A stretch of 64,000 nucleotides of DNA from the sequence record PZ452579.1; one strand, 5' to 3'. The first letter of the stretch is position 1. Every line of letters starts with the position of its first letter. The position numbers and the translations under genes were made by a program. The notes under the pieces were generated by a model. The model ran no database searches. It had not been told where the DNA came from and saw only the letters and a list, made by a program, of their open reading frames with translations. This DNA comes from a phage. Below, in pieces: positions 3,493 to 50,153 of this stretch.

Positions 3493-3517
3493 GATTGTCT
3501 CCTCTGAATTATATATC

Positions 3518-3842: not shown

Positions 3843-4255
3843 TATTGCCCCGCTTCAAATTCTCGCATATCCTGGATATGTTTAAGTGCAAAACTACGAG
3901 ACTTAACTGCGTCAAGTGCACCACTACAGAACTCAAGTAAAATTCCCCAGTATTGTAAAGTAGTCTCTATTTTAAGCACATCTTTATCTGCAGCCAGGAC
4001 AGTTTTCATTTCAGATTTCTCGTATCGGTCCATACTGAATTCATCACCATCACCTCGTCCCGAGTAGTAGTCTAATCTTGCTTTTAGAGCAGTTTTCTTC
4101 TGAGTCTCTATACGCAACATTTCTTTACGAATAAATGAGTGCTTACGTAGCCATTTGCTGTATAACTTAACATTATTCGCCGTCTCATATTGCAACTTTG
4201 TCGTATCAATAGCTAAGTCTGCGTCTAACTCTTCCTGTAAATCTTCCAGCTTCAT
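3842..4255 (-). CDS. uvsY: UvsY recombination mediator protein
   Basis: 137 aa from internal Met (MKLEDLQEEL...); matches remembered T4 UvsY (LQYWGILL, SGRGDGDEFSMDRYEKSEMKTV); track ORF extends further 5' through the upstream region. Confidence 0.93.
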   Translation of the reverse strand: MKLEDLQEELDADLAIDTTKLQYETANNVKLYSKWLRKHSFIRKEMLRIETQKKTALKARLDYYSGRGDGDEFSMDRYEKSEMKTVLAADKDVLKIETTLQYWGILLEFCSGALDAVKSRSFALKHIQDMREFEAGQ

Positions 4256-30639: not shown

Positions 30640-31500
30640 TTATACCGCCATTTTAGCTTTGATAGCTGGATGTGATTCGTAATTTTTAAGAACGAAATCA
30701 GAATGTGTCATTGTTCCAGTAACCCAGTCCATTTGGATTTTTGTAGGCCAATTCTCAAAATTACTAGGCCAATTAATTTCAAGAGAACATAACTCTTTAG
30801 GTTCACGACGAAGAACTTCTTTGCATTGTTCTACATGATTGCTGTAGATATGCGTGTTGCCGCCTGAGAACACTAAATCACCCGGGATAAGGTTACACAT
30901 CTTCGCTACAATATGCGTCAAAGCAGCGTACGAGGCAATGTTGAACGGCAGGCCCAAGAAAACATCTACACTGCGTTGATACCATTGTAAATCAAGATGT
31001 CCATTACGCACATTAAATTGATAGAACATATGACAAGGAGGAAGAGCCATTTGGTCAATTTCGGCTGGGTTCCATGCAGAAACTATTTGACGACGATCAT
31101 TAGGAAGAGCTTTAATACGGTCGATAGTTTTGACCAATTGGTCTACACCACCAAAATCACGCCATTGCTTACCATAAATAGGACCAAGTTCGCCGCTATG
31201 ATATCCAAGGTCTTTTGCCTGATTTTCATAGTTGTCGTCCCAAATAGTTTTACCTTGAATAAGACTACCATGAGTACGAATACGCAAATCATTAACATTG
31301 GTAGAACCAGACATGAACCATAATAGCTCGGCAATACAAGCTTTCCATGCAAGCTTCTTGGTTGTTACTGCAGGAAATCCTTTAGTAAGGTCCCATCGCA
31401 ATTTAGTTCCGAATAGAGCAATAGTGCCGGTACCTGTACGGTCGTCTGTTTCGTAGCCATTTTCTAAGATATCTTTAATCAAATCTTGATATTGTTTCAT
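30640..31500 (-). CDS. td: Thymidylate synthase (intron-less)
   Basis: 286-aa single ORF; active-site PCH (LPPCHMFYQF); no group I intron or I-TevI. Confidence 0.95.
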   Translation of the reverse strand: MKQYQDLIKDILENGYETDDRTGTGTIALFGTKLRWDLTKGFPAVTTKKLAWKACIAELLWFMSGSTNVNDLRIRTHGSLIQGKTIWDDNYENQAKDLGYHSGELGPIYGKQWRDFGGVDQLVKTIDRIKALPNDRRQIVSAWNPAEIDQMALPPCHMFYQFNVRNGHLDLQWYQRSVDVFLGLPFNIASYAALTHIVAKMCNLIPGDLVFSGGNTHIYSNHVEQCKEVLRREPKELCSLEINWPSNFENWPTKIQMDWVTGTMTHSDFVLKNYESHPAIKAKMAV

Positions 31501-31515
31501 TTAACACCTATATAA

Positions 31516-31863
31516 TCAATACGGTTTAGCATCAAATTTTCTTTCAATTTCAGGCGTGAAATATAATTCTTTACCACGCTTAGAAAAGCGACCGATAATA
31601 TGATAATTATTTTCGTCGAACGTGATATTACCGAGGTCCATAGCTTTTAACCAATCATCAATACTTCTGTGCAGTTTTATATCAAAATTCCAGTATTGAG
31701 AACTATTACCGCGGATACTACAAGCAGATTCAGTAAAACAACTACTATAAATCTTGTCTTTAGGAACTACTAATTGATAAACACCTTTAATAAACTGAGG
31801 ACCTTGCCACTTTGGCTGTTTCGCATCTTCTTCTAATAGAATAGGGTAATAATTAAAATTCAT
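31516..31863 (-). CDS. Hypothetical protein inserted between frd and td
   Basis: 115-aa ORF; in T4 frd and td abut, so this is extra relative to T4. Confidence 0.6.
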   Translation of the reverse strand: MNFNYYPILLEEDAKQPKWQGPQFIKGVYQLVVPKDKIYSSCFTESACSIRGNSSQYWNFDIKLHRSIDDWLKAMDLGNITFDENNYHIIGRFSKRGKELYFTPEIERKFDAKPY

Positions 31864-32447
31864 TTATATACACTCTCAGTAATTTCGGTGAGTTCATCGA
31901 TTCTGTAGTAATGAGATTCTACCATAGAACGTTGAAGCATAATATCTTGGATGAAATCTTTATCAAGTTGAACATCTGAATTAACACGACATTTCTTAAT
32001 GATTTTAGTCATCACGATTTCATCGGCATAAGGCAGGGCTTGTTTTAATAGAGCAGGGCCACCAATAACAGATACATCAACATGTTCAGTAGAAAGTTTA
32101 AACGGTACGTCAGTTGCAGGGCTAAACAGGTTAATTTCACCACCCATTACCAAGGTAATAAATTCAGATTGGGTGATATAGAAATGCGCAAATTCGTTGG
32201 TTTTGGACCTAGGCAGTTTTCTGGCCATATCAGTGACAACCACATGAGTACGATCTGGGAGTAGACGAGGTAATGATGCAAAAGTCTTAGCACCCATAAC
32301 CATTACAGTGTTTTTAGTGCGAGCAACAAAGTTACTCATATCTTGTTTGATATGCTTCCATGGAAGTCCATCACCTAATCCAAAAGCATATTCCAGTTTA
32401 TCATCAACTGTTTTAGACGGTGCGCATGCGAATACTAATTTAAGCAT
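31860..32447 (-). CDS. frd: Dihydrofolate reductase
   Basis: 195 aa; DHFR motifs GLGDGLPW and MGAKTFASLP; matches T4 Frd. Confidence 0.93.
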   Translation of the reverse strand: MLKLVFACAPSKTVDDKLEYAFGLGDGLPWKHIKQDMSNFVARTKNTVMVMGAKTFASLPRLLPDRTHVVVTDMARKLPRSKTNEFAHFYITQSEFITLVMGGEINLFSPATDVPFKLSTEHVDVSVIGGPALLKQALPYADEIVMTKIIKKCRVNSDVQLDKDFIQDIMLQRSMVESHYYRIDELTEITESVYK

Positions 32448-32688
32448 TTTTAAGTCCTTTAATAACTTTTTGGATTTGTGATTTAGACGAAACTAGTTCT
32501 GTCTGAATTTCCCAACCATCGGTTTGGTCAAATGTTGTAACACAAACACGAGGTTTTGTTGTGTATCGTCCAGACAAATCAAATGCATCACCAATGAATT
32601 CGGCCAAATCCGGATGGTCTAAATTAACTGAAGTATAAACTTCATATCCGACATCAGCGCCTTGAGAGTATTCAACAACAACATTCAT
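32440..32688 (-). CDS. Hypothetical protein (frd.1 position)
   Basis: 82-aa ORF. Confidence 0.55.
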   Translation of the reverse strand: MNVVVEYSQGADVGYEVYTSVNLDHPDLAEFIGDAFDLSGRYTTKPRVCVTTFDQTDGWEIQTELVSSKSQIQKVIKGLKNA

Positions 32689-32690
32689 AA

Positions 32691-32939
32691 TTATTTCCTC
32701 AGATTTTTCTTAACAACTTTCCAATCAGCTTTAAACGATTCAACATCAGAGTGGTGAATCCAGAATCCTGCACTTTCACCATCTTCGTAGAGTGGACATC
32801 CATCACATTCTTCGTTCCAACCCATTTCACGTAAAGCTTCTTCAGCTTGTTCAAGGAGTTCAGCGTCTTTACCAACGATGTTGAAGTACCATTTACCTCT
32901 AACTTCAGAATCTTTGATGCTCTGGCGTTGCAATCTCAT
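32691..32939 (-). CDS. Hypothetical protein (frd.2 position)
   Basis: Start set at ATG 32939 (MRLQRQS...) with GGAG RBS; the track start at 32954 corresponds to a GTG codon. Confidence 0.55.
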   Translation of the reverse strand: MRLQRQSIKDSEVRGKWYFNIVGKDAELLEQAEEALREMGWNEECDGCPLYEDGESAGFWIHHSDVESFKADWKVVKKNLRK

Positions 32940-33000
32940 TTTATTCTCCTTCACTTTTATTTGATAGGGCTATGTTATAGTAGCCCTATCTTGTTATAAA

Positions 33001-33482: not shown

Positions 33483-33500
33483 GGGAGACCGAAGTCTCCC
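33483..33500 (-). terminator. Gene 32 transcription terminator (UUCG-tetraloop hairpin plus U-tract)
   Basis: gggagac cgaa gtctccc 7 nt after the gene 32 stop; minus RNA has UUCG loop and downstream U-rich tract. Confidence 0.7.
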
Positions 33501-49452: not shown

Positions 49453-50085
49453 TCACAGTACGTTAGTTACAAGGGTAATGATTTCTTTGGACACATTAGG
49501 GAAGTCAATATAAGTATATTTACCACCGATCTTAATCTTAACATCATTTTCAAGAGAAGTAAACAGCTTTGATTCAGTTTCTGACATGTTGTATGCAAAG
49601 ATTCTAAGAGCGCCATCTCGACGAATTTCGATCTGACGAATACCTAGAACTCGTTTTGCAAATCGAACTTCCAAGTTACTACGGTTTTCACCAATTTCCT
49701 TAACTTCAACTTTATCTTTAATATTTTCAAAAACAAAGTTTGCTAATTCATGCATTTCAGGAGTAACTCCACGTGCTTTTCTAGTGTTACGTTTCTGAAG
49801 AAGTTCTGGAGCGTTTTCTTGGGCAAAGAGGTCTGCAGCTTTTTGGATAATATCCATTGCTTCGCCTGTTGCTACAAGTCCATCACCGGATTTTTCGACT
49901 AAACCTTTCTTAATCAATACACCAATGTTAGAGTTAACAACTGATGCATTGTATTCCGCTTCCAGAGCTTCACGGACATTGGCAGCAGTGGTGAAGTTGT
50001 TCTTAATGATATAAACCATTATTGCAGCAGTTTTTTCATTCAGAGCGTTTTCAGAAGCTTTGATGATGTAAGTAACTTTAGACAT
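49453..50085 (-). CDS. motA: MotA middle-transcription activator
   Basis: 210 aa; matches T4 MotA (MSKVTYIIKAS...VLIKKGLVEKSGDGL...). Confidence 0.95.
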   Translation of the reverse strand: MSKVTYIIKASENALNEKTAAIMVYIIKNNFTTAANVREALEAEYNASVVNSNIGVLIKKGLVEKSGDGLVATGEAMDIIQKAADLFAQENAPELLQKRNTRKARGVTPEMHELANFVFENIKDKVEVKEIGENRSNLEVRFAKRVLGIRQIEIRRDGALRIFAYNMSETESKLFTSLENDVKIKIGGKYTYIDFPNVSKEIITLVTNVL

Positions 50086-50123
50086 TTTATTTCTCCAATT
50101 TGGTTGTTTTGTTTTGATAGGTC

Positions 50124-50153
50124 TATAATATCATGTTTGAAGCACATGTAAAC
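50124..50153 (-). promoter_or_regulatory. T4-type early promoter (minus) for motA in a gataggtctata PeSL-like context
   Basis: + strand tataat/ataata - 16-17 nt - tgtaaac. Confidence 0.55.

Follow-up and report, generated by a model that had tools for sequence, protein, structure and literature searches.

The T-even phages carry free-standing homing endonuclease genes (seg, mob, hef and segH) that are optional, lie between conserved nucleotide-metabolism genes and are discordant with their flanks in sequence similarity. The gene analysed here, td.1, resembles them in all of these respects. However, it encodes neither a nuclease or DNA-binding domain nor conserved catalytic residues, is about half as large and has occupied a single locus since ancient times. 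A different comparison is offered by the bifunctional dihydrofolate reductase (DHFR)–thymidylate synthase enzymes of protozoa, which have a junction region. The td.1 gene likewise lies between a DHFR gene and a thymidylate synthase gene arranged in that order, and its product is presumably made together with both enzymes. Unlike that junction region, to which it has no sequence relationship, the td.1 product is a separate polypeptide, and the parallel is by analogy only.

Members of the td.1 family itself occur as tandem paralogues in Kanagawavirus, Marfavirus, Gelderlandvirus and Winklervirus (for example, gp155 and gp154 of Salmonella phage S16). Specifically, these paralogues share with td.1 a predicted fold, a position overlapping frd and td, and the motifs LLE..QKKW, HG(I/V)Y, GN and GRFxKxG...F. 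They differ in that their identity to td.1 is only 30–45% and in that the second, or b-type, copy carries an insertion of roughly 21 residues (ALVIxGxxPTIEQYKRNPxxY). Tequatrovirus and Mosigvirus, unlike the genera with tandem paralogues, retain the a-type copy alone or neither.

The name td.1, for a hypothetical protein, was given in the GenBank record of phage T2H (AY262132.2, protein ABI48932.1). Residues 4–111 of the protein match positions 2–125 of the 126-position PHROG 1928 profile (E = 9.2e-36), and the distant a-type and b-type relatives match the same profile. With a name and a PHROG number, td.1 is already catalogued as a gene of unknown function. The protein considered here is 100% identical in amino acid sequence to annotated proteins of phages SF, PTK, AlbertHofmann and Shf125875, and GenBank holds the identical protein for about a dozen phages. 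In RB3 and the majority of the other genomes it is annotated as a hypothetical protein, and it is unannotated in the T2 record AY310907.2, where a 413-nt ‘gap’ separates frd and td. In three BASEL phages the label is ‘putative homing endonuclease’, and other labels include ‘putative glucose-1-phosphate adenylyltransferase’ and ‘putative dihydrofolate reductase’. Records with inconsistent td.1 annotation include OR125554.1, OM386666.1, PV287714.1, OK272476.1, MZ501047.1 and AY310907.2. None of the functional GenBank labels was supported by the searches made here. Full-text searches for td.1 and its synonyms among papers outside subscription journals found no discussion of the gene.

The td.1 reading frame and its junctions

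The window, which is the whole 64,000-nucleotide stretch of phage DNA analysed (PZ452579.1), carries the frd–td junction on its minus strand, and all features of the junction described below are on that strand. The initial annotation noted a 115-aa open reading frame (ORF) between frd and td, and such a frame is indeed present at 31516..31863, with an ATG start, 115 codons and a stop codon at 31518..31516. The encoded protein begins MNFNYYPILLEEDAKQPKWQGP. Its upstream partner is frd (dihydrofolate reductase, 31860..32447), an RB69-type allele with 95.7% nucleotide identity to that of RB69, and its downstream partner is td (thymidylate synthase, 30640..31500), also an RB69-type allele (97.1%). 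The td gene of the window encodes 286 aa in one unbroken frame and is intronless, without I-TevI. In T4, as the initial annotation stated, nothing lies between frd and td, and the two genes overlap.

The 4-nt overlap reported between the start of the ORF and the end of frd is borne out. The sequence ATGA (31860..31863) contains both the td.1 start codon and the frd stop codon, and the same 4-nt overlap joins the DHFR gene to the td.1 homologue in phage S16 and in three further loci (L014, L015 and L017). This arrangement is a predicted translational coupling of td.1 to frd. A Shine–Dalgarno-like sequence, GAGAGTG (31871..31877), is located within the frd coding region 8–14 nt upstream of the td.1 ATG and may act in td.1 translation. 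At the other end of the gene, a 15-nt spacer, TTATATAGGTGTTAA (31501..31515), contains the td Shine–Dalgarno sequence AGGTG (31509..31505). The distance of 13 nt originally given between the end of the ORF and this ribosome-binding site needs correction: AGGTG begins 6 nt past the td.1 stop codon, and the 15 nt of spacer extend to the td ATG.

The gene is bracketed by two copies of an 8-bp direct repeat, TAAATGAA, the left copy (31859..31866) at the frd stop and td.1 start and the right copy (31496..31503) at the end of the spacer and the td start. These copies flank exactly the 363 nt that are absent from RB69-type genomes. Excision of one TAAATGAA copy together with the intervening DNA regenerates the type of frd–td junction found in RB69 and T4, TAAATGAAA, in which the two genes meet at ATGA.

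The length of the td.1 ORF is weak proof of coding, because the other frames of this AT-rich region contain fortuitous ORFs that reach 108 aa. Together with the dispensability of the gene in T4 and RB69, these nearby spurious frames fit the reading of td.1 as a chance ORF or a decaying, functionless remnant. The pattern of substitution is opposed to this reading. Between the window and T2, td.1 has 30 synonymous and 9 non-synonymous differences (dN/dS of 0.044), so that the absence of coding signal which would have counted against the initial annotation is not what is seen. Values of 0.03–0.05 were obtained for every inter-genus pair, and within-genus pairs exhibit 8–10 differences, of which none is non-synonymous. 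Moreover, the protein was found in 589 phage records by tblastn, hundreds of genomes contain the reading frame at full length and the protein has a confident predicted fold. A chance ORF or remnant is ruled out by the dN/dS values, the 589 records and the fold prediction, and we assign practically no probability to it. By these sequence measures, td.1 is a functional protein-coding gene.

No promoter of its own was detected for td.1, as promoter-like sites in the region do not rise above the shuffled background, and no T4 late-promoter sequence (TATAAATA) is present near the gene. Likewise, a search for a td.1 terminator revealed only one additional terminator-like hairpin near the gene, which is weaker and resides inside td (31342–31325). 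Just downstream of gene 32 (33483–33500, on both strands), the sequence GGGAGAC-TTCG-GTCTCCC forms a perfect, GC-rich hairpin ahead of a run of T. The gene 32 transcript probably ends at this hairpin, and a unit running from frd.2 to td probably begins there. The string of genes after this hairpin is frd.2-frd.1-ORF82-frd-td.1-td. The lack of a dedicated promoter or terminator, along with the tight packing of the genes, suggests that td.1 is expressed within the frd–td unit.

In this string, ORF82 (82 aa, 32440–32688, minus strand) separates frd.1 (DUF5417, 32691–32954) from frd, with an 8-nt overlap at the frd start, and matches no Pfam family. Small ORFs resembling it are annotated just upstream of frd in RB3 and AlbertHofmann, and not in T4 or RB69.

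The td.1 family and the history of the cassette

An exhaustive profile search of 1.84 billion representative proteins recovered only 50 clusters. Three long matches that might have revealed a function through domain fusion are SprB-repeat or ricin-lectin repeat proteins and were set aside as spurious, whereas the genuine members outside these 3 clusters are stand-alone proteins of 95–148 aa. The td.1 family (PHROG 1928) is confined to T4-like phages. In every context examined but one, a family member directly follows the DHFR gene and precedes the thymidylate synthase gene, overlapping or abutting both. The synteny comparison proposed in the initial annotation thus places the family after frd throughout the sampled T4-like lineages, with a single contig as the exception. 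The frd-adjacent members include those of Kanagawavirus ZX14 and KLB31, Jiaodavirus Mineola, Marfavirus F48, Gelderlandvirus S16, Winklervirus CHI14 and Erwinia phage COW86c, as well as those of four lineages known from metagenomic or genomic sequence, some of them with an frd at only about 36% identity. Overall, the same placement is observed in 14 other loci representing at least 9 lineages. This fixed place after frd in the sampled lineages indicates that the td.1 family is old at the frd–td site.

The exceptional member, a 139-aa protein (P0040) encoded on a metagenomic contig (L016, 4001–4420), is not beside frd in the available part of that contig, which ends at P0040. An NMN transporter gene and a NadR-like gene are among those upstream of it.

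Most of the more distant lineages examined carry two tandem copies of the gene, and the a-type and b-type proteins are homologous (hhalign probability 99.7%, E = 1e-26). Within the window, no td.1 paralogue was found elsewhere; the only weak profile match (E = 0.02, 49456–50130) is MotA. When distant genera are compared with the window, td.1 shows 32–45% identity and frd 45–48%. This parallel divergence of td.1 and frd fits vertical descent at a fixed locus.

Among tequatroviruses, about 349 records carry td.1, with 90–95% amino acid identity to the copy in the window, and 32, most of them from T4 or laboratory derivatives of it, have a direct frd–td junction. The presence of td.1 is the majority state in this genus, and T4 is the exception. 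The proportions are different in Mosigvirus, in which 14 records carry td.1 (at least 99% identity) and 127 have the RB69-type direct junction without it. The split occurs even inside one species, as PhAPEC2 lacks td.1 and AlbertHofmann (Mosigvirus phapec2) has it. The earlier description of the ORF as ‘inserted’ therefore holds for the lineage of the window, where a precise 363-nt cassette distinguishes it from RB69 and 127 Mosigvirus records. Across the T4-like genera td.1 is ancestral at the locus, and in Tequatrovirus its presence is the majority state.

The similarity of td.1 to its counterpart in T2 contrasts sharply with that of its flanks. Specifically, td.1 of the window and of T2 are equal in length (115 aa) and have 88.8% nucleotide and 94% amino acid identity, whereas frd and td are 66% and 76.5% identical in nucleotide sequence and 57% and 84% in protein sequence. 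The window frd is also 66% identical in nucleotide sequence to that of T4, and synonymous divergence is 0.75 for td.1 as against 2.06 for td. In megablast searches, RB69-type genomes match the window on either side of a clean 363-nt gap, and tequatroviruses match only query positions 585–940, which correspond to td.1. The window is thus an SF-like Mosigvirus in which td.1 is a 363-nt cassette between TAAATGAA repeats. The T2-like character of td.1 (about 89%) between RB69-like flanks (96–97%) points to acquisition by recombination with a Tequatrovirus-related donor.

The cassette of T2 is longer, at 417 nt, and is bracketed by the 9-bp repeat TAAATGAAA, copies of which are present at 3498–3506 and 3915–3923 of AY310907.2. 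T2 and RB3 have a spacer of 20–24 nt between the frd stop and td.1, in contrast to the direct ATGA fusion of the window, and the T2 spacer between td.1 and td is 45 nt rather than 15 nt. The latter spacer of the window looks like that of T2 minus about 30 nt. The T2 spacer that follows the frd stop begins with the vestigial sequence ATGAAATAA, which reads Met-Lys-stop and has no obvious use; its first six bases are those of the td start, ATGAAA. This sequence may have been left over from a former direct junction of frd with td or with td.1.

The junction of the window, an RB69-type frd fused directly to td.1, was found in four records only: SF (twice), NHEP29 and NHEP36. A different junction is present in AlbertHofmann, in which td.1 is accompanied by a T4-type frd allele (87.9% nucleotide identity to T4 and 65% to RB69). 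The combination of a T4-type frd with td.1 in Mosigviruses of the AlbertHofmann type indicates that a larger block was taken up and that frd was swapped between genera together with td.1.

Several additional features of these frd alleles were observed. PHB12 also has a T4-type frd, at least at its 3′ end, and td of both PHB12 and AlbertHofmann remains RB69-type. In RB3 (L012, 1897–2511) and AlbertHofmann (L001, 2394–3011), an additional A ahead of the usual frd stop codon causes a frameshift, by which Frd gains about 10 C-terminal residues and its gene overlaps td.1 by 11 nt. By comparison, Frd of T2 and of the window ends in ...ESVYK.

A gene whose presence varies in two genera at one exact position between conserved neighbours, whose similarity is discordant with that of its flanks (89% to T2, compared with 66% for frd and 76.5% for td) and whose ends carry short direct repeats is also what a mobile endonuclease gene might leave behind. 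On this reading, which agrees with the label in MZ501047, MZ501066 and MZ501067, td.1 would be a free-standing homing endonuclease that cuts the frd–td junction of genomes lacking it and copies itself in. The paper on the BASEL collection, whose annotation is comparative-genomic, gives no specific evidence for that label. Furthermore, td.1 has no Pfam match even at E ≤ 10, and hence no GIY-YIG, HNH, LAGLIDADG, other nuclease or NUMOD domain; no family was matched by more than one of 63 aligned members; and none of the invariant residues is a His, Asp, Glu, Asn or Cys. At 115 aa, the protein is also about half as long as I-TevI (245 aa) and SegG (210 aa), and Seg and Mob enzymes are generally about twice as large as td.1. 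Deep orthologues (30–45% identity) occupy the same slot and diverge along with frd, which indicates vertical descent rather than homing. A homing endonuclease is rejected on these grounds of absent nuclease motifs, small size and deep vertical history, and we regard it as very improbable.

Another candidate explanation, in which loss of td.1 hitch-hiked with the td intron and its endonuclease I-TevI, is contradicted by RB3, NBG2, Isf-Pm2 and ESCO58, which carry both td.1 and I-TevI, and by some Mosigviruses that lack td.1 and have a td intron. The td intron is itself polymorphic within Mosigvirus: G2469 and TH12 match the window td in three pieces, and a ‘group I intron endonuclease’ is annotated with their split td.

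The simplest reading of these observations is ancestry followed by loss and regain, in which we infer the direction of some steps. The td.1 family would be ancestral at the frd–td locus, and the lineages of T4 and RB69 would have lost td.1 by recombination between the short repeats formed by the overlapping stop and start codons. A minority of Mosigviruses would then have regained the gene by recombination with a donor related to Tequatrovirus, and a later, second crossover at ATGAA would have produced the junction of SF and the window. Confidence is high in this account of the identity and evolutionary history of td.1 taken alone.

Predicted fold and candidate functions

The observation of the initial annotation that td.1 has no recognizable motif extends to the databases, as no sequence match was found in Pfam (even at E ≤ 10), NCBIfam or PADLOC, the last of which covers defence proteins and not anti-defence proteins. 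When the td.1 sequence alone and two profiles were searched against the sequences of solved structures, the best E value was 0.045. The neighbouring genes frd.1 and frd.2 that T4 encodes, and frd.3 of related phages, have Pfam families, and td.1 has none.

An AlphaFold2 model built with an alignment of 63 sequences provides the structure prediction that had been proposed as a check, and it is a confident one (mean pLDDT 92.7, pTM 0.85). The model appears to be a single-domain beta-barrel with one helix. Its predicted elements are strands at residues 6–12 and 27–34, an irregular stretch, a strand at 62–64, a helix at 68–77, a strand at 80–82 and a hairpin of strands 86–96 and 99–104. The predicted order, b1-b2-b3-helix-b4-b5, is that of OB folds, and the weak fold matches of the model are mostly OB folds. 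Matches in BFVD are uncharacterized proteins of T4-like phages only, and td.1 is effectively without a solved relative.

Alignments of 15, 28 and 63 sequences reveal W19, G91, K95 and G97 as invariant in the family and L9, G27, Y29, F93 and F102 as nearly so, and Q16 and R92 are conserved in most members. The window protein has all of the family motifs (W19, G27, Y29, G91-R-F93-x-K95-x-G97 and F102). An enzyme, and a nuclease above all, is made less likely by the lack of a conserved His, Asp, Glu, Asn or Cys. The family is only mildly basic, with a median pI of 8.6.

Our preferred suggestion for the function, which we offer tentatively, is that td.1 encodes a dispensable, non-enzymatic binding or adaptor protein that would be made with Frd and Td and would aid the thymidylate cycle or the dNTP-synthesizing complex. 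The one positive point in support of an adaptor is the tight packing of td.1 between frd and td. This point is weakened by the conservation of gene order among T4-like phages, since adjacency may reflect descent and not function. Unrelated T4 genes also commonly overlap at ATGA, and T4 and RB69 grow well without td.1. In a more specific version, which we consider quite improbable and which draws on the protozoan analogy, td.1 would be a non-covalent partner of DHFR and thymidylate synthase, either as a small barrel that bridges or regulates them or as a tether to single-stranded DNA at the replication fork.

The fold prediction brings in a related proposal, that td.1 is an OB-fold protein that binds single-stranded DNA or RNA, for example as a translational regulator of the frd–td mRNA or as a protein that connects dNTP synthesis with the replication fork. 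Like the OB domains of SSB, RPA, PriB, Teb1 and HIN, td.1 would be a small barrel with the predicted topology given above, and such domains are its commonest weak structural matches. However, no relationship to OB families was detected in Pfam, PDB profiles or NCBIfam, and hhalign comparisons with SSB, CspA and PriB, for which the comparison sequences were entered by hand, gave probabilities of at most 0.5%. We judge this proposal unlikely.

The distribution of the gene raises another alternative, in which td.1 has no connection to nucleotide metabolism and encodes a host-takeover or anti-defence protein that would bind a host protein and neutralize or redirect it, its place in the genome being merely inherited. 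Many small early genes of T-even phages act on the host, and td.1 is small, dispensable, present or absent within a species (PhAPEC2 compared with AlbertHofmann), exchanged laterally between genera and without an enzymatic signature. Its lack of a match to PADLOC families is a point against this alternative from a library of defence rather than anti-defence proteins. In addition, its position is fixed even in lineages in which frd is about 36% identical, and at depth it diverges at about the rate of frd. This combination of fixed position and frd-like rate is unlike that of counter-defence genes with fast turnover. We give a takeover or anti-defence role about the same probability as the adaptor reading. 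To return to the adaptor reading, the chance that the whole explanation is right, with identity, history and this functional suggestion taken together, seems to us about even.

The observation of td.1 is in itself ordinary, as this is a widespread T-even gene that was already known. Its interest resides in what the locus illustrates. Annotation centred on T4 hides td.1, and its GenBank labels are inconsistent or wrong; a corrected annotation of the gene is a by-product of this analysis. The gene also represents a clean case of a cassette whose loss and regain at a translational-coupling junction proceed through 8–9-bp repeats, and which has moved between genera. Moreover, the td.1 protein is strongly constrained, has a confidently predicted fold and lacks a solved relative, which makes it a reasonable and cheap target for study in phage nucleotide metabolism. 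If it does prove to be a partner of DHFR and thymidylate synthase, its role would have been missed because the reference phage, T4, deleted the gene.
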